NCBI GenBank assembly: GCA_964563645.1
Contig: CAZLXJ010000055.1
Location: 6,920-70,919, forward strand
Reading direction: 5' to 3'
Length of the DNA: 64,000 nucleotides
Source of the DNA: an uncultured Actinomycetota bacterium
GTDB lineage: Bacteria; Actinomycetota; Humimicrobiia; Humimicrobiales; Humimicrobiaceae
A program made the position numbers and the translations under genes. The notes under the pieces were generated by a model that was given only the letters and a program-made list of their open reading frames with translations, was not told where the DNA came from and ran no database searches. Below are positions 11,825 to 63,708 of this stretch, one piece after another (position 1 is the first letter of the stretch; each line of letters starts with the position of its first letter).

Positions 11825-13009
11825 TTAGAGCCGGTCGATTACATCATCTCTTTCTATTAAATTTGCAAGGGTAACCTTATTTTCCCCAAATTTATTTGAT
11901 ATCGCATCAATCGCTTCAGTAAGATTTTCATTCCCATTATTTTTATTGTATATCAGGCTGCCTGGTTCGGATATACGCTCTAAGCCGCTTACCGATGCTC
12001 CTATAAGCCTTATTTTATTATGGTTTAGATCCATGGACTTTAAAAGTGATACTGTTGCCCTGTATATGTCAAAAATACCATATGTATTTTCACCAAGCAC
12101 CGCCCTCCTGGTGATTGTCCTGAAATTGGAAAATCTTAATTTAAGCGTAATTATTTTACCCCTGTATCCCCTGTACTTCATATTTATGGCGATTTTTTGT
12201 GAAAGAAGGAGAAGTGTGGATTTGAGTGTAGAAAGATCATTAATATCCTTACGGTATGTTATCTCCCGGCCTATCGACTTTACTTCAGGATTCGGATTAA
12301 CTTTTCTATTGTCTATTCCATTAGACATATCATGCATCATCCTGCCAGGTTCGCCGAATCTTGCTTCAATAATTTCCACAGGAGTATCTGCCAGATCTCC
12401 AATAGTATATATACCCATGGATTCAAGTTCTTTATTCGTAACATGTCCGACGCCATGGATATATGATACCGGAAGAAGCCTTATCTTTCTTAGTATCCTG
12501 CCTGTATTCTCCAGCACAGTCAGGCCGTTGGGTTTTCCCATGTTTGAGGCAAGCTTTGCGAGAAATTTATTTGGTCCCAACCCGGCAGAAGATGTAAGGT
12601 TGGTACTTTCGTAAATCCTGCCTTTTATTTTCTTTGCTATTTCAAGTGCATCTCCAAATAACTTTTCACAACCGGTAACGTCGAGGAAACCTTCATCGCA
12701 CCCTATAACCTCTACAAGCGGGGTAAAATTGTAGAATATGCTTCTTATTATCATTGATTCCCTCAAATATTTTTCCATGTTAACAGGTATAAATAAACCT
12801 TCTGGGCAGAGTTTTTTTGCCCTGCTGATAGGCATTCCGGAATGGATACCGTATTTCCTTGCCTCGTAAGAGGCGGTAGAGACCACACCCCTGTTTAACG
12901 GCCCTCCGACAATAAGAGGTTTATTTTTGTATCCGGGATTATCCCTCTGTTCTATCTGGGCAAAGAATGCATCCATATCTACATGGATTATTTTTCTTAA
13001 CTTTTCCAA
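11825..13009 (-). CDS. dinB: DNA polymerase IV (Y-family)
   Basis: IHVDMDAFFAQIE, DEGFLDV, KSIGREITY. Full length at 394 aa. Its start overlaps the dnaE stop by 13 nt. Confidence 0.9.
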   Translation of the reverse strand: MEKLRKIIHVDMDAFFAQIEQRDNPGYKNKPLIVGGPLNRGVVSTASYEARKYGIHSGMPISRAKKLCPEGLFIPVNMEKYLRESMIIRSIFYNFTPLVEVIGCDEGFLDVTGCEKLFGDALEIAKKIKGRIYESTNLTSSAGLGPNKFLAKLASNMGKPNGLTVLENTGRILRKIRLLPVSYIHGVGHVTNKELESMGIYTIGDLADTPVEIIEARFGEPGRMMHDMSNGIDNRKVNPNPEVKSIGREITYRKDINDLSTLKSTLLLLSQKIAINMKYRGYRGKIITLKLRFSNFRTITRRAVLGENTYGIFDIYRATVSLLKSMDLNHNKIRLIGASVSGLERISEPGSLIYNKNNGNENLTEAIDAISNKFGENKVTLANLIERDDVIDRL

Positions 13010-16000
13010 ACCGGCTCCGATCCTGCAAGTATGTTATATCTTAGAGCCTGGTTCCTACAGCTCCTTTTTATTTTTTTTAAAAGTGCCAGATCAATTGCTT
13101 CTCTGCCTGTGATGGTAATATCCCCATCCCTCTGTTCAGGATTTCCTCTTACGATCATAGCAGTGCTCTCTGTAAGTGTCTTGAAATATTTACTGTAAAC
13201 AGGAGGGAAAAACACCGATTCAAATATTCCGTCAATGTCTTCCATGGTGCAGAAGAGCATTTTTTTCCCATCTTTTGTATTTTCAACCCTCCGGTTAAGG
13301 ACAATTCCTGCACAATTAATATCACCGGGGCGGCTATTACCTATATTTTTGATAATTTTGGAGAAGTTGCCGCTTCTGCAGGGATTGAATTTCTCAAGCT
13401 CTTCCCTGAAATAGTCAAGAGGGGGATGGCTTATGCAGAATCCAAGTATTCTGAATTCTTCCTCAATTTTTTCTTCAATGCTGACATTGTTCTTTTTATT
13501 ACATTCAAGTTTAAATACAGGGTTTAATGCTGGGTGAGAGCGGCCGCAGGGAAAGTGTTTGAAGGTCCTGAGATAATAGAATAGTGCAAGGAGATTCTTC
13601 CTGCCTGTTCCGGTATAATCAAATCCTCCAACCCTTATCAGGTTTTCAACAGCATTTTTATTAAGAGAGGACTTCTTGATACACCTGTGATAAAAATCAA
13701 AAAAATCCTTAAAGCAGCCATTTTTTGCCCTTTCTTTTATTATAAGATTTGCCCCTGATGGACCAAGGTCCCTTATGGAAGTTAGCGGGACCCTTATGGC
13801 CTTCCCGTTATCTTCGGGGCTGAATCTGTATTTACTCTTATTTACATCGGGGAGCTTAAGGGCCAGCCCCAGCCTCCGGGCTTCTTCTATGTATTGTGCC
13901 TGCCTGTAATATCCGGAATTATTTGAAAGTATTGAAGATATGAGCTCTGCTGGAAAATATACCTTTAAGTAGGCTATTTTATAAGATATTTCACTGTAGG
14001 CGGCGGCGTGGGCCCTGACAAAGCCGTAACTTGCGAACCTGGATATTAAATCAAAAATACGCCTGGCAAAATCAAGGGAATAGCCTTTTTGAAGAGAACC
14101 CCTGATAAATTTCGACCTCTGCTTTTTCATTTCAGGCGAAGAAAGTCCGGTGATTGCTTTTCGAAGTACATCTGCTTCACTGAATGAGTAGCCTGCTATT
14201 TCTATTGCTATCCTCATAACCTGTTCCTGGTAAAGGATTACCCCATAGGTATCTTTTAAAATGGGTTCAAGATCTTTATGAATAAATACAGTATCTTCTC
14301 TTCCGAATTTTCTTTCTATAAAATTTTTGACCATGCCTGACCGCTGCGGGCCCGGCCGGTAAAGTGAGATAAGAAGGGTAATATCATCAAGGTTTGATGG
14401 TTTTAGCTTTTTTGCCAGAGACCTGATGCCGGAGCTTTCGAGCTGGAATACTCCCAGTGTATTTCCGCCCTTTATAATATCAAATACTTTTTTATCGCCA
14501 TGACTTATTTCAGATATATTTATATCAATATTCCTCCGCTTTTTAAGACTTTTGATTACATCACTTATAAGGCTGAGGCTTACAGAGCTTATAAGGTCTG
14601 TTTTTATAAGGCCGAGTCTTTTAATGCTTTCCATATCGTATTGTGTCATGATCCCTCCTGTATCCGAAAGAGTAAGCGGAACGGTTCCGGTAAGATCTCT
14701 GCGGGATATAATAAATGCAGATGGATGCAATGACATGTGTTTTATGTAATTTTCTATTTTTAAGGCGCAGGATAAGATATTCACAGGGATTCTGCCTTTC
14801 CCGAGAAGACCAGCAGCTTCTTTTATACTTTCCGGCGAAGCCCTCCCGGATGAAAAGCTTTCAGGTAAATCCGGCCTCTTTAATATATCATCGGTCTCAA
14901 ATTTTCCAAGTCCTGCTATCCTTCCTGCCTCTCTTACGGCTGCCCGCGGCCTTAGAGTTGAGAATAGGCATACTCTGGAAACATTTTCTGCCCCATATCT
15001 GGAAGAAAGGTAGGACAGCAGCTCACTTCTTCTCCTGCTGCAGATATCAATATCTATATCAGGGGGGCTTTTTCTTCCGGTGTTTAAAAACCTTTCAAAA
15101 TAAAGATTCTGCTCTACGGGGTCGACATCTGATATTCCCAGAAGATAGGATACAAGGCTTCCGGCAGCAGAACCTTTTCCGCATATGGGTATGTTTCTTT
15201 CCCTGGCAAATCCTGCCATGTCTGCGATTATAAGAAAATATCCGCTGAAACCTGTTTTTTCAATTATTTTGAGTTCCTTCTCAAGTCTGTAAAAGTACCT
15301 GGCATCAGGATAACACCCGAACCTCCGTATAAACCCCGTCATGCAGAGTTTTCTAAGGTAGCCTCCTGGACTGGTCTCTCCTGCAGGTATCTCAAAAAGG
15401 GGAAGCCAGGTCTTTCCCAGGTCCAGGTCCAGGTTGCATTTGCCGGATATGATAGAAGTATTTGATATGGCTTCCGGGATGTCCCGGAACATTGAAATAA
15501 TTTCTTCAGAAGACTTAAAATAATCTTCCCCGCCCGTTATAATCCTGAAAAAGGGATCTTTTTTCATACCCATTGATTTTAATTTGGAAAGATACCTGTA
15601 TATGCAGTAGCTTTTTTTATCTATGTAACGGACATTATTTGTAGCCACAGGAGGCAAATTGTTGGAAAGTGCAAAATTTGTGATTACTTCTGAAAGGTTA
15701 TTGTAAAAGCCGGTCTTTTGGAAGGGGACTCTCTGAATTTCTATATAAAAATCGCCTTCGAATATTTCAATACAGCGGTATGCAGCTTTTAAAGCCCCGT
15801 ACCTGTCTCCATTTTTAAGCAGATCGGGTATCTTGCCGTTAGGGCATCCGCTTAGCCCGATAAGACCTTCGCTGTTTTTGCTTAAATACTTAATATCTAT
15901 TGAAGGAACAGAGTGTTTCTTTTTCAGGTGGGACCTGCTTACTATGCGGCAGAGATTTTTATACCCCCTGAGATTTTTTGCCAGAAGTATCATGTGGGAC

Positions 16001-16227
16001 AGGCCGTCTATGTCAGACAAACATATTTCACATCCTATAATTGGTTTTATATTTGCGGATAAGGCACTTTCATAAAACTTGACCGCTCCACCCATCATAT
16101 ATCTGTCTGTCAGCGCAACAGCCTTCATATTGAGACCGGCTGCTGCTTTTATAAGGTCTCCTATCCTGACGGCGGATTCCATCAGGCTGTATTCGCTGTG
16201 CACATGAAGATGTGTAAAAGGAGTCAC
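12997..16227 (-). CDS. dnaE: DNA polymerase III alpha subunit, short (1076 aa) DnaE-family protein (DnaE2/DnaE3-like)
   Basis: PHP domain HLHVHSEYS, catalytic PPDIDIDI, C-terminal OB fold. No long C-terminal tail. Confidence 0.9.
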   Translation of the reverse strand: MTPFTHLHVHSEYSLMESAVRIGDLIKAAAGLNMKAVALTDRYMMGGAVKFYESALSANIKPIIGCEICLSDIDGLSHMILLAKNLRGYKNLCRIVSRSHLKKKHSVPSIDIKYLSKNSEGLIGLSGCPNGKIPDLLKNGDRYGALKAAYRCIEIFEGDFYIEIQRVPFQKTGFYNNLSEVITNFALSNNLPPVATNNVRYIDKKSYCIYRYLSKLKSMGMKKDPFFRIITGGEDYFKSSEEIISMFRDIPEAISNTSIISGKCNLDLDLGKTWLPLFEIPAGETSPGGYLRKLCMTGFIRRFGCYPDARYFYRLEKELKIIEKTGFSGYFLIIADMAGFARERNIPICGKGSAAGSLVSYLLGISDVDPVEQNLYFERFLNTGRKSPPDIDIDICSRRRSELLSYLSSRYGAENVSRVCLFSTLRPRAAVREAGRIAGLGKFETDDILKRPDLPESFSSGRASPESIKEAAGLLGKGRIPVNILSCALKIENYIKHMSLHPSAFIISRRDLTGTVPLTLSDTGGIMTQYDMESIKRLGLIKTDLISSVSLSLISDVIKSLKKRRNIDINISEISHGDKKVFDIIKGGNTLGVFQLESSGIRSLAKKLKPSNLDDITLLISLYRPGPQRSGMVKNFIERKFGREDTVFIHKDLEPILKDTYGVILYQEQVMRIAIEIAGYSFSEADVLRKAITGLSSPEMKKQRSKFIRGSLQKGYSLDFARRIFDLISRFASYGFVRAHAAAYSEISYKIAYLKVYFPAELISSILSNNSGYYRQAQYIEEARRLGLALKLPDVNKSKYRFSPEDNGKAIRVPLTSIRDLGPSGANLIIKERAKNGCFKDFFDFYHRCIKKSSLNKNAVENLIRVGGFDYTGTGRKNLLALFYYLRTFKHFPCGRSHPALNPVFKLECNKKNNVSIEEKIEEEFRILGFCISHPPLDYFREELEKFNPCRSGNFSKIIKNIGNSRPGDINCAGIVLNRRVENTKDGKKMLFCTMEDIDGIFESVFFPPVYSKYFKTLTESTAMIVRGNPEQRDGDITITGREAIDLALLKKIKRSCRNQALRYNILAGSEPVWKS

Positions 16228-16264: not shown

Positions 16265-16885
16265 TTACCGCAATGCCCTCTGGACGGCTACCACTTTCCC
16301 CTGGATTAAAGGATCTGATTCCATTATCATGGGCATATATTCCGGATTAGAAGACCTGAGTTCAACATATTTTTCTTTTCTGTAAAATCTTTTTACTACA
16401 GCTTCGTCACCTATAAGCGCTACCACTATGTCACCATTATCTGCTACTGGTTGTGATCGTACTGCTATAATATCCCCGTCGAGTATATGGTCTCCGACCA
16501 TGCTGTCTCCATGAACCCTGAGAGCAAAATCAGCATTTCCCCTTATTATATCGGCAGGGAAGGGGATACGGTCTTCAATGTTTTCTTCAGCAAGGACAGG
16601 CCTTCCTGCGGCTATCCTTCCTATGAGAGGGAGATACAGGGCTTCCTTTTCGGTACCCCGGCCCAGTGTCTCCAGGGCCTTCTTTGTTAGTTTTATGGAG
16701 CGGGCAGATGATCTTCTTTCTATATATCCCTTTCTTTCCAGTGAATACAGGTGATCGGAAATCCCCCTCGGGGAATTGATATAAAGCATACCTGCAAGCT
16801 CCCTTATGGAGGGAGGATAGCTGTTTGCCAGCATATAATTGTATATTTTTTTAAGAACCAGATGCTGTCTGCCGGTAAGTCTCAA
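16265..16885 (-). CDS. lexA: LexA-family repressor, paralog 2 (first gene of the lexA-dnaE-dinB unit)
   Basis: Winged HTH (SIRELAGMLYINSPRGISDHLYSLERKGYIER), AAG cleavage site, GDSM serine and VKRF lysine. TTG start with a GGAGG RBS. Confidence 0.85.
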   Translation of the reverse strand: MRLTGRQHLVLKKIYNYMLANSYPPSIRELAGMLYINSPRGISDHLYSLERKGYIERRSSARSIKLTKKALETLGRGTEKEALYLPLIGRIAAGRPVLAEENIEDRIPFPADIIRGNADFALRVHGDSMVGDHILDGDIIAVRSQPVADNGDIVVALIGDEAVVKRFYRKEKYVELRSSNPEYMPMIMESDPLIQGKVVAVQRALR

Positions 16886-16970
16886 TCAAAGCCTCCAGAT
16901 TTGAAAATTGAAATAATTCCTGTAGTTCCAGTTCCAGCCTGCCGGAGTTTACCTGCTTGATATTATTATA

Positions 16971-17002
16971 TATAATTACTATACAAATGTATAGTAATTA
17001 TA
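16971..17002. promoter_or_regulatory. 32-bp palindrome (15-nt perfect arms, 2-nt centre), candidate operator in the divergent region between lexA paralog 2 and the 3D-domain gene
   Basis: TATAATTACTATACA-AA-TGTATAGTAATTATA. The outer hexamers read TATAAT on each strand. Confidence 0.45.
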
Positions 17003-17205
17003 GGGATATTTTTTAAAAGGCTGCACCGGTAATTATTTTATTAATCAATTTTTGCAAACAATTTTTTAACAAATTTATCTTACATATAATATATTTTCTG
17101 TTGATTTTTGAGAAAAAGCCTGTATAATCCATGGTTTTGGTGATTGTTTATTAAATAAAGTATTTATTAAATAATCAATATTTTTGTTTTGCTTATTAAA
17201 AAAAG

Positions 17206-17721
17206 GTGGAAATGACAAATAGATATAACATAGTTATCAATATACTGTTCTGGATCCTGATTGCTGTACTTGTCTTTGCAGCGGCTGTAACAGTTCTTAC
17301 AAAGAATGGACATATAGATCCATTTATACTAAAAACTGAAACAGAAGTTGTTGTAGAAAAAGAACCGGTTGTGATAACAAAAGTAGAAAAAATAAAGGAA
17401 GAAACGGAATGGTTCTATTTTATTGCAACAGGCTATAGTGCAAATGACCCGAAGCAGGGTACAAACAATATAACAGCTACGGGTAAACAGATAAGGGAAG
17501 GTATGATAGCAGTCGACCCCGATATAATACCTCTTGGAACAAAAGTAGAAATCAAAGACCTCGGTATTTTCACCGCAGAAGATACGGGTGGAAAGATCAG
17601 GGGGAACCGGATCGATGTATATTTTGATACCAGAGAAGAAGCCAAAAAATTTGGCCGCAGGATAATATGGGTCAGAATTCCTGACAGCAGCATAGAGCTT
17701 GCGGAAGAACTTTTTGAGTAG
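17206..17721 (+). CDS. 3D-domain cell-wall protein (MltA/RlpA-like fold) with N-terminal membrane anchor
   Basis: ATGYSANDPKQG..TATG..GMIAVDPDIIPLGTKV..AEDTGGKIRGNRIDVYF pattern. Confidence 0.7.
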   Translation: MEMTNRYNIVINILFWILIAVLVFAAAVTVLTKNGHIDPFILKTETEVVVEKEPVVITKVEKIKEETEWFYFIATGYSANDPKQGTNNITATGKQIREGMIAVDPDIIPLGTKVEIKDLGIFTAEDTGGKIRGNRIDVYFDTREEAKKFGRRIIWVRIPDSSIELAEELFE

Positions 17722-60166: not shown

Positions 60167-61459
60167 ATGATAAAAGAAAAAGCGCTTTTAATATTCATTG
60201 AATTTATAGGTAATACAAAAAAAGAAGGCAGGGTAAAGAGAGGGAAATATTCAAATAAAGATAATATTGAAGAGTTATCCAACCTTACAATTAGTGCAGG
60301 TGCAGAAATTGAAAAAGTCCTTACTTATAAACAGGAAAAACCAAATCCAAAATATTTTATCAGCAGCGGAAGGCTTAATAATATAAAGGGTATTTTAGAA
60401 GAAGAAAATATTGAACTTATTATTTTTGATGATGAAATAACTCCCACACAGCAGAGAAATCTGCAGGGTAAATTAAATAAGAAGGTTCTGGACAGGACTG
60501 CGCTTATCCTTGATATATTTGCGCAGAGAGCAAATAGCAGGGAAGGTAAATTACAGGTTGAGCTTGCGCAATTAGATTATCTTCTCCCAAGATTGACGGG
60601 AAGGGGAATAGAACTTTCAAGACTTGGCGGCGGAATAGGTACGAGGGGCCCCGGAGAGACAAAACTTGAGGTAGATAGAAGGAAAATTAGAAATAGAATT
60701 ACCAGTCTGAAAAAAAAGATTGATAAAATATCTGTTCAGAGGGAAACACAGAGAAAAAGCAGGGAAAATAATATTTTTCAGATATCACTTGTAGGATATA
60801 CGAACAGTGGTAAATCCACTCTTCTAAATTCTCTTACAAATTCTGAGGTTTATGTAAAAAACATGCTTTTTTCGACTCTTGATTCTACTACAAGAAAGTT
60901 AAATCTTGATATAAGACCAGAAGTTTTAATTACAGATACAGTGGGTTTTATTGATAAGCTCCCGCACCAGCTTATAGCAGCTTTTAAATCTACACTGGAG
61001 GAAGTAAGGATATCGGATCTAATGCTTATTATAGTTGATGCGAGCAATAATAATTTTGAATCAAATATATTAAGCGTGAAAAAAGTTTTGAAGGAAATTG
61101 ATGTATGGAGAAAACCTTTTTTTATAGTATTTAATAAAATTGACAAAATCCACCCTGAACTGTTAAAAAGACTGCGTTTCAAATACAGAAATTCAATTTT
61201 TGTTTCTGCTTTAAAAGGGACTGGCCTGGAAGAAATAAAATCAAAGATTAAAAAAATTATTGAAAAACATAATATGAATATAACAATAAGAATACCCTAT
61301 AACAATCAGAAAATTATTTCTTTTATATATGATAAATGCCATATTCTGGACAGGAAAGATTCAGAAACCGGTATTTTATTTGATCTTAATATAGAACCAA
61401 AATATAAAGACCAGCTTTTGCCGTTTATTTATAATAAAGAAAGAATAAAGATTTCTTAG
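60167..61459 (+). CDS. hflX: GTPase HflX
   Basis: LDIFAQRANSREGKLQVELAQL, GYTNSGKST, DTVGF, NKID. Confidence 0.9.
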   Translation: MIKEKALLIFIEFIGNTKKEGRVKRGKYSNKDNIEELSNLTISAGAEIEKVLTYKQEKPNPKYFISSGRLNNIKGILEEENIELIIFDDEITPTQQRNLQGKLNKKVLDRTALILDIFAQRANSREGKLQVELAQLDYLLPRLTGRGIELSRLGGGIGTRGPGETKLEVDRRKIRNRITSLKKKIDKISVQRETQRKSRENNIFQISLVGYTNSGKSTLLNSLTNSEVYVKNMLFSTLDSTTRKLNLDIRPEVLITDTVGFIDKLPHQLIAAFKSTLEEVRISDLMLIIVDASNNNFESNILSVKKVLKEIDVWRKPFFIVFNKIDKIHPELLKRLRFKYRNSIFVSALKGTGLEEIKSKIKKIIEKHNMNITIRIPYNNQKIISFIYDKCHILDRKDSETGILFDLNIEPKYKDQLLPFIYNKERIKIS

Positions 61460-62106
61460 AAATATTTTCTTATTATACCTATGACTTTTCCAAGGATTTT
61501 TATTTCCCTGACTACTACCGGTTCCATATGGTCATTTTCAGGTATTAGCTTTATTTCTGATTCACCTTTATAAAATCTTTTAACAGTAGCTTCATCTTCA
61601 AGCAGCGCAACTACTATCTCTCCGTTTATTGCTGTATTTTGCTTTCTTACTATTACCAGATCCCTGTCAAGGATGCCTGCGTTTACCATGCTGTCACCAT
61701 GGACGTTAAGCATAAATACATCGTGATTCCCCTTTACAAAATCCGGTGTTAAGGGAAAATAGTCTTCTATATTTTCTTCGGCTAGAATAGGTTTACCTGC
61801 AGCAACATTACCGATAATCGGAACAAATATTAGATTACCTGAGTGCAATTCAATGTTTTCATGTGCAGCTCTGTCTGTAGCTGTAAGTGAAAGTGCGCGG
61901 GGTTTTGACGCATCTCTTTTAAGATATCCCAATTCTTCCAATTTTTTTAAATGAGAATGAACAGTTGCAGATGAACTTAAGCCAACTGCTTTTGCAATCT
62001 CTCTTACCGATGGGGGATATCCTTCCTGTTTTATCTTGCTATTTATAAACTCCAGTATCTTTCTTTGCCTGAGGCCAATATTTGAATTTTGATCAGTGAA
62101 TTTCAT
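61456..62106 (-). CDS. lexA: LexA repressor, paralog 1 (canonical Gram-positive type)
   Basis: SVREIAKAVGLSSSATVHSHLKKLEELGYLKR, VAAGKP cleavage site, HGDSM, VKRF. The stop overlaps the hflX stop by 4 nt (convergent). Confidence 0.9.
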   Translation of the reverse strand: MKFTDQNSNIGLRQRKILEFINSKIKQEGYPPSVREIAKAVGLSSSATVHSHLKKLEELGYLKRDASKPRALSLTATDRAAHENIELHSGNLIFVPIIGNVAAGKPILAEENIEDYFPLTPDFVKGNHDVFMLNVHGDSMVNAGILDRDLVIVRKQNTAINGEIVVALLEDEATVKRFYKGESEIKLIPENDHMEPVVVREIKILGKVIGIIRKYF

Positions 62107-62143: not shown

Positions 62144-62157
62144 CAAACAAAGGTTCG
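62144..62157 (-). promoter_or_regulatory. Cheo-type SOS box upstream of lexA paralog 1
   Basis: In lexA sense it reads CGAACCTTTGTTTG (GAAC-N4-GTTT), overlapping the -35 position of a TATAAT at 62123-62118. Confidence 0.55.
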
Positions 62158-63312: not shown

Positions 63313-63361
63313 TTGACACAAACATGTGTTCGGCTGTATTATATATACAAACATATGTTCG
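63313..63361 (+). promoter_or_regulatory. SOS-regulated promoter: TTGACA-N18-TATTAT with two Cheo-type LexA boxes
   Basis: Boxes CAAACATGTGTTCG (63319-63332, in the spacer) and CAAACATATGTTCG (63348-63361, just after the -10). The reverse complements fit CGAACRNRYGTTYG. Confidence 0.75.
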
Positions 63362-63408: not shown

Positions 63409-63708
63409 ATGAAAAGGCAAATAGAAATAGGTATGAAAAAATTTTTTATGATAGTTTTGATAATAATAGTAAGTATACTGGTTATATTAGCTTTTTACAG
63501 CAACAGGTATAAATTTAATGGAATAAGTACTATAAGATATATGAAAGTCAGCATAAACGAAGAAATTAATATCAGCCAGCTGGCCGATAGATACTCAAAT
63601 CCTTATGAAAAAGATATATTCTTAAGTGAGTTGAAAAGAGTTAATAATTTATCAACAGATTCTATTTACGGGGGTACGGTTTTCATACCTGTATTTAAAT
63701 CGAATTAA
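63409..63708 (+). CDS. YneA-like SOS cell-division inhibitor (TM anchor + LysM-like domain)
   Basis: N-terminal TM helix. LysM-like ISQLADRYSNPYEKDIFLSELKRVNNLSTDSIYGGTVFIPV. Lies downstream of the dual LexA boxes. Confidence 0.65.
   Translation: MKRQIEIGMKKFFMIVLIIIVSILVILAFYSNRYKFNGISTIRYMKVSINEEINISQLADRYSNPYEKDIFLSELKRVNNLSTDSIYGGTVFIPVFKSN

Follow-up and report, generated by a model that had tools for sequence, protein, structure and literature searches.

Introduction

In Pseudomonas putida a second LexA, LexA2, reportedly heads a lexA2-imuA-imuB-dnaE2 cassette (Abella et al. 2004, 2007, as cited in PMC3789691 and PMC3919608). The imuA-imuB-dnaE2 cassette as generally defined comprises imuA, which is RecA-like, imuB, which encodes an inactive Y-family polymerase, and dnaE2, all under LexA control (PMC3919608). 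Second LexA proteins have also been described in Xanthomonas axonopodis and Leptospira interrogans, where the SOS box read by LexA2 is a different one and its own promoter is the only one that it binds (PMC3789691). More generally, LexA stands apart from other global regulators in that its binding motif has changed many times, with 17 motifs counted by 2021 and gene duplication as the proposed route (PMC8565304); lexA duplication has been linked to motif divergence (PMC7739468; PMC8565304), and duplication-linked divergence of the motif is the accepted model (PMC8565304). Autoregulation of LexA is nearly universal, and the search for conserved motifs in lexA promoters is the published route to LexA-binding motifs (PMC7739468; PMC8565304).

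Here we analyse a palindrome upstream of a second lexA gene, lexA-2, in a genome of the Actinomycetota. Throughout, the window is the whole 64-kb stretch of DNA that was analysed, which has a G+C content of about 37%. The source genome has two lexA genes whose products differ in their DNA-binding domains and which carry different boxes at their own promoters. We consider it very likely, from comparison of related loci, that the palindrome is the autoregulatory operator of LexA-2 and that the lexA2-dnaE-dinB operon is repressed through it. A second LexA with a diverged recognition helix and a different box at its own promoter is known already; what is new here is a CTAT-N8-ATAG motif with an invariant TACA..TGTA interior, and a cassette of DnaE and DinB without imuA or imuB in an uncultivated actinobacterial class.

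LexA-2 and the lexA-dnaE-dinB operon

The first gene of a conserved lexA-dnaE-dinB operon on the minus strand is lexA-2. Specifically, the operon consists of:

16265 to 16885, minus strand: lexA-2, 206 aa, with a TTG start and a GGAGG ribosome-binding site (Pfam LexA_DNA_bind and Peptidase_S24)
12997 to 16227, minus strand: second gene, a DnaE-family Pol III alpha paralogue, 1076 aa (Pfam PHP, DNA_pol3_alpha, finger, HHH_6 and OB)
11825 to 13009, minus strand: third gene, dinB (DNA polymerase IV), 394 aa (Pfam IMS, IMS_C and IMS_HHH_1), its start overlapping the dnaE stop by 13 nt

[quoted passage not shown] The hallmarks of that family are present, namely a LexA-type N-terminal domain and an S24 domain with a Ser/Lys dyad and an Ala-Gly site. 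Ala93-Gly94, Ser128 and Lys165 are invariant in 29 LexA-2-family members and align with the E. coli residues that we take to be A84-G85, S119 and K156. The recognition helix reads SPRGISDHL, and the best 120 database homologues share the pattern SP[RK][GA]xxDHL, except that three of them have SL or SV replacing SP. For both LexA-2 and its paralogue LexA-1, the closest named homologues come from MAGs labelled 'Actinobacteria bacterium' and 'Candidatus Humimicrobiaceae', members of the actinomycetotal class Ca. Humimicrobiia.

The operon DnaE falls below every NCBIfam equivalog cut-off, scoring 926 bits against the Pol III alpha model and 615 bits against that for 'error-prone' DnaE2 (cut-off 939), and by bit score it is nearer to replicative alpha than to the DnaE2 model. 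It aligns to residues 6-1074 of the 1160 of E. coli alpha and is without approximately the last 85 residues. Its gene follows lexA-2 in nine of the loci described below (L161, L164, L166, L167, L169, L171, L172, L173 and L208). The dinB product scores 366 bits against the NCBIfam Pol IV equivalog (cut-off 256) and is apparently active. In L174 (6001-7894), as in L083, lexA-2 has the same operator and is followed directly by dinB, with no dnaE in the cassette of this sub-lineage; the composition of the cassette therefore varies.

LexA-1 and its boxes

The second LexA of the window and the boxes associated with it are as follows:

61456 to 62106, minus strand: lexA-1, a canonical LexA of 216 aa, 41.6% identical to LexA-2
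62144 to 62157, minus strand: CGAACCTTTGTTTG, a Cheo-type box in the promoter of lexA-1 that is also kept ahead of this gene in L206 and L207
63319 to 63361, no strand assigned: a pair of Cheo-type boxes (CGAAC-N4-GTTTG) in the interval that separates ilvC from the gene of a small membrane protein, both conserved in L206 and L207

The LexA-1 recognition helix, SSSATVHSHL, is of the Gram-positive type, and its gene has miaB...hflX-lexA surroundings of the kind that is usual for lexA in actinobacteria. In a comparison by name with 13 canonical LexA loci from Actinobacteria and Firmicutes, LexA-1 outscores LexA-2 at all but one, a Clostridia MAG locus. LexA-1 appears, from the boxes at its own promoter and their conservation, to use CGAAC-N4-GTTTG sites. 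The two paralogues thus differ both in their helices and in their conserved boxes. Both paralogues appear to be retained in the lineage. A longest contig of 65,076 bp is reported for both the 86% LexA-1 relative and the 89% LexA-2 relative, which suggests that these two may lie on one contig.

The surroundings of lexA-1 also show some further features. The gene lies directly downstream of ilvC and has its own CGAAC-N4-GTTTG box and a TATAAT within the 77-bp gap, and the order ilvC, box, lexA-1 and convergent hflX is kept in L206 and L207. Downstream of the 63319-63361 boxes and divergent from ilvC, positions 63409-63708 encode a 99-aa protein with an N-terminal hydrophobic segment, as read from the translation, and a sub-threshold LysM match (E = 0.025). 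By these features it looks like a YneA/ChiZ-type SOS cell-division inhibitor, which would be under LexA-1 control.

The palindrome and the lexA-2 promoter

Upstream of lexA-2 we distinguish the following elements, of which those of the promoter are predictions:

16971 to 17002, no strand assigned: extended 32-bp perfect palindrome, made of the core and symmetric 7-nt flanks
16978 to 16995, no strand assigned: candidate operator core of 18 bp, ACTATACA-AA-TGTATAGT, of CTAT-N8-ATAG geometry and conserved across loci
16965 to 16970, minus strand: predicted -10 hexamer TATAAT of the lexA-2 promoter, just outside the palindrome, with an invariant 7-nt spacing in 16 of 16 loci
16988 to 16993, minus strand: TATACA, the predicted -35 hexamer of the lexA-2 promoter, which forms the inner portion of the half-site distal to lexA, its spacing invariant in 16 loci
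17008 to 17019, minus strand: TTTTTTAAAA, an A/T tract that precedes the -35 box and may be an UP element

The 32 bp read TATAATTACTATACA-AA-TGTATAGTAATTATA, with arms that are complementary at 15 of 15 positions around a centre of 2 nt. A distance of 86 nt separates the palindrome from the lexA-2 TTG (16885), and one of 204 nt separates it from the earliest start codon available to the divergent 3D-domain ORF (GTG, 17206), so that the original prediction gave the arms and distances correctly. When arms of 10 nt or more and loops of up to 6 nt are considered, it is the sole perfect inverted repeat in the 64-kb window. Moreover, in 100 second-order Markov simulations of the window the arms never reached 15 nt, the simulated maximum being 13, and even with up to three mismatches only 0.01 occurrences of the inner 20-mer are expected per window. 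Taken together, these three results mean that the palindrome is more than a chance occurrence.

The inner 20-mer is identical to the gammaproteobacterial SOS consensus TACTGTATATATATACAGTA at 15 of 20 positions, a count that had been put forward previously and that holds on recomputation. An E. coli-type SOS box is defined as CTGT-N8-ACAG, whereas the site reads CTAT-N8-ATAG, with the A invariant in 16 of 16 loci. It also lacks the GAAC-N4-GTTC dyad by which a Cheo box is defined, and the intergenic region upstream of lexA-2 (16886-17205) contains no GAAC-N4-GTTC with up to one mismatch, in agreement with the original prediction.

The promoter scan returned TATACA-N17-TATAAT as a match at 10 of 12 promoter positions. 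As the core always stands 7 nt before the TATAAT, the TATACA of its left half-site would be the -35 box of the lexA-2 promoter. In two loci, L167 (416-455) and L208 (4964-5003), an ATG is found 6 nt after the TATAAT, which supports the assignment of the -10 box; judging from this spacing, the lexA-2 mRNA is probably leaderless in both. Other LexA-2-family members have leaders of up to approximately 200 nt. Most loci, as read from the alignment, have a run of 5-7 A or T approximately 10-20 nt upstream of the core, and the A/T tract of the window may act as an UP element.

Conservation across related loci

We compared 16 LexA-2-family loci, with protein identities of 50-89%, all family members being metagenome-derived. 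L161 to L174 and L208 came from contig look-ups of homologues. A metagenome contig scan with the LexA-2 protein alone gave five close relatives (L081 to L084 and L146), and a genome contig scan with the family alignment gave L001, the LexA-2-family member among the matches listed, the rest of which were canonical LexAs. Several loci are closely related (L081/L082, L083/L174 and L001/L172), so that the count of 16 overstates their independence and the number of independent lineages is approximately a dozen.

A single ACTATACA-NN-TGTATAG[T/C] stands upstream of lexA-2 in every one of the 16. The 16 specified positions of the core are invariant in 14 loci, and the remaining two each carry one T-to-C change. 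When the loci are aligned on the dyad, information content is highest over the 18-bp core and the TATAAT, drops directly outside the core and is at background elsewhere. The TATAAT itself is invariant and starts 7 nt after the core in all 16, while the distance from core to start codon varies from 19 to 221 nt and the adjacent intergenic DNA is not conserved.

The core also stays with lexA-2 when its surroundings change. Its upstream neighbour is the 3D-domain gene in seven loci (L161, L164, L166, L169, L171, L172 and L173) and ferredoxin-type genes in L174 and L208; the palindrome accompanies lexA-2 without the 3D gene as neighbour in L081, L083, L174 and L208, and the L167 contig stops approximately 450 bp upstream. 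A scan of approximately 205 kb of lineage DNA, made up of 64 kb of the source genome and approximately 140 kb from relatives and including two lexA-1 loci, found no further site with up to three mismatches. There is thus one site per locus in the approximately 205 kb scanned, which included no complete genome. Overall, the suggestion that LexA-2 has a private operator, distinct from the Cheo boxes, is well supported by this comparison, that is by the site in 16 of 16 loci, the different helices and the LexA-1 boxes.

Outside the core the sequence differs between loci. The TATAAT arms, which had been described on both outer ends of the palindrome, are present here but are specific to the source genome and its 89% relative, and they are not conserved in orthologous sites, where the outer positions read ATTATT, AATACC, AGTACT or TTAATC. 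A plus-strand TTTACC-N17-TATAAT, also previously suggested, does exist at 16948-16976; as read from the sequences, it can be made out in just one relative, L161 (89%), and not in L164 or L166, and we have rejected it as a conserved promoter.

The flanks nevertheless remain symmetric as they change. Symmetry extends over 6 of 6 nt beyond the core in 9 of the 16 loci, by way of five flank sequences (ATAATT, AATACC, ATTATT, AGTACT and AATATT), and some of the differences are G:C pairs changed on both arms. It is this symmetry past the core that makes the palindrome of the window 32 bp rather than 18 bp long. The symmetric co-variation is seen at 16971-16977 and 16996-17002 and at the same positions in L081, L084, L146, L164 and L174. 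Such a pattern in aligned sequences points to selection acting on the symmetry as such, and it could stem from a symmetric dimer that makes wing or DNA-shape contacts, or from arm-to-arm correction.

The divergent 3D-domain gene

It had also been suggested that the palindrome might repress both divergent promoters. The 3D-domain gene has a promoter-like TTGATT-N16-TATAAT of its own at 17101-17128, which is conserved, as read from the sequences, in the seven of seven loci that have this gene as neighbour. Since this promoter starts 99 bp from the palindrome edge, dual repression is unlikely; the palindrome is moreover kept at lexA-2 in loci with another neighbour than the 3D gene. The promoter is followed by a leader of approximately 80 nt that has overlapping AT-rich inverted repeats (17141-17179), which are partly conserved in L161. 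A search of 16800-17300 against Rfam gave no match.

Proposed mechanism and alternative explanations

We propose that a LexA-2 dimer would bind the dyad ACTATACA-NN-TGTATAGT, which would span approximately -37 to -20 of the lexA-2 promoter if transcription starts approximately 7 nt after the -10 box. With LexA-2 bound, RNA polymerase would be obstructed over the -35 box and spacer, and the lexA2-dnaE-dinB operon would stay off. On DNA damage, RecA-stimulated self-cleavage of LexA-2 at Ala93-Gly94, with Ser128 and Lys165 as the catalytic pair, would free the operator and lead to induction of the two polymerases together with fresh repressor. LexA-1 would act separately through CGAAC-N4-GTTTG boxes. 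Within this scheme, it is the identity of the binder, the position of the transcription start and the induction by damage that we infer.

One alternative is that the dyad is bound by a different transcription factor, encoded elsewhere, which controls lexA2-dnaE-dinB. An identical 16-nt dyad does precede a phage repressor gene of the XRE-HTH/S24 type, unrelated to lexA-2, in two phage contigs, L186 and L204, and could be taken to point this way. We nevertheless hold the idea to be unlikely, given that all 16 loci have the site at lexA-2 irrespective of the neighbouring genes and that it was found nowhere else in the 205 kb, that the 4-N8-4 geometry of the dyad is LexA-like, and that LexA proteins almost universally regulate themselves (PMC7739468; PMC8565304). 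A different reading would have only a strong promoter conserved, composed of -35 box, spacer, -10 box and UP element, with no operator and with symmetry that is incidental. The left half-site does hold the predicted -35 box, the whole dyad lies within the promoter core and the region is AT-rich; part of the invariance could therefore come from promoter constraints (TATACA as -35 box and an AT-rich spacer) and not from repressor contacts. Spacers, however, are not normally conserved in sequence, and of the 10 spacer positions within the core (2 of the centre and 8 of the right half-site) all but the central two are invariant and mirror the left half exactly. TATACA is moreover a non-consensus -35 box that is kept unchanged, flank symmetry is maintained through five different sequences, and no comparable palindrome is found at other promoters of the window, all of which makes a promoter on its own very improbable.

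It might also be argued that the palindrome serves as a nucleic-acid structure, that is a terminator, an RNA hairpin or a DNA cruciform, as its RNA fold has a free energy of -15.6 kcal/mol (z = -3.2), a plus-strand T-run follows 8 nt after the stem and the symmetric flank changes keep the pairing. We give this explanation almost no credence. Only 2 of the 15 pairs in the stem are G-C, and the T-run is displaced; lexA-2 and the 3D gene both point away from the palindrome, so that transcription of neither side enters it; the palindrome lies upstream of the transcription start expected from the conserved promoter and so would not be part of the lexA-2 mRNA; and there is no Rfam match. The terminator reading in particular was rejected, the terminator scan having found none.

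The phage contigs deserve a separate mention. The exact dyad, ACTATACAGATGTATAGT, occurs in two related IMG/VR contigs (L186, 5577-5594; L204, 7633-7650), approximately 105 nt upstream of the gene for an XRE-HTH and S24 (cI-like) repressor, in a divergent region towards an ATPase gene. L186 comes from sample 3300001336, a number next to 3300001335, which is one of the two JGI samples with the 89% LexA-2 relative. In a scan of viral contigs the motif was found in 31, approximately the chance expectation (unquantified), of which these two related ones have it next to a repressor gene; viral contigs yielded no gene of the LexA-2 family, their best match being 41% identical. The phage dyad may be a coincidence, it may be an operator of the phage itself, or the phage may make use of the LexA-2 box of its host.

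Discussion

The arrangement at this locus resembles that of P. putida LexA2 in that a second lexA heads a polymerase operon (damage-inducible in P. putida), has a putative operator of its own, unlike that of the primary LexA, and may control only a very small regulon. It differs in its actinobacterial host and its CTAT-N8-ATAG-type motif, and in the cassette itself, which here has neither imuA nor an inactive imuB; its DnaE is below the DnaE2 cut-off and its DinB passes the Pol IV equivalog. Accordingly it is not an imuA-imuB-dnaE2 cassette: imuA is absent, the Y-family gene passes the Pol IV equivalog and the dnaE is below the cut-off.

With E. coli LexA, whose helix reads SPNAAEEHL, LexA-2 shares the SPxxxxxHL frame. 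Within that frame N41, A42, A43, E44 and E45 of E. coli LexA, which we take to be the residues that contact the CTGT bases in the 3JSO structure, are replaced in LexA-2 by R, G, I, S and D. Correspondingly, the site shares with the SOS box of E. coli and the Gammaproteobacteria, CTGT-N8-ACAG (PMC8565304), the 4-N8-4 geometry and the outer TAC..GTA bases, but the G of CTGT is an invariant A here, and the inner TACA..TGTA, merely AT-rich in the E. coli box, is invariant. The CGAAC-N4-GTTTG boxes of LexA-1, on the other hand, are like the Cheo box of Firmicutes and Actinobacteria, GAAC-N4-GTTC (PMC7739468), with which the lexA-2 palindrome shares neither half-site nor spacing.

As in Xanthomonas and Leptospira, there are two LexA proteins with different DNA-binding domains (PMC3789691). 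The LexA2 genes of those two organisms are not linked to dnaE-dinB, and the one in Leptospira lies in a prophage-like region (PMC3789691), whereas here vertical conservation of the paralogue together with its site extends over a whole clade.

The lexA-2 motif is not among the LexA motifs quoted in PMC8565304 and PMC7739468, and a full-text literature search for TGTATAGT together with LexA gave no pertinent match. Neither 'lexA-dnaE' nor 'lexA-dinB' was found in the literature searched, the limited coverage of which makes this weak evidence of novelty. We see roughly even chances that the SP[RK][GA]xxDHL LexA family stands for an undescribed motif, ACTATACA-N2-TGTATAGT, of E. coli-type 4-N8-4 geometry in a Gram-positive phylum, governing a self-contained lexA-dnaE-dinB mutagenesis module that replaces imuA-imuB-dnaE2 and has been inserted at several genomic positions. 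If so, the symmetric co-variation of the operator flanks would record the co-evolution of the repressor wing, or of DNA-shape contacts, with a single target. If the genome has no other dnaE, a replicative polymerase would stand behind a LexA operator.

The proposed LexA-2 operator overturns nothing that is established about the SOS response. What it would offer is a natural example in which a canonical LexA with Cheo-type boxes and a diverged paralogue are found in one uncultivated actinobacterial genome, the sole detectable target of LexA-2 being its own polymerase operon and its operator being one base per half-site away from an E. coli-type SOS box. Such a genome may serve as a test case for which recognition-helix residues switch between CTGT, CTAT and GAAC specificity, for the validity of the 'duplicate, diverge, retake the regulon' model and for the role of a DnaE and DinB pair under separate SOS-like control.
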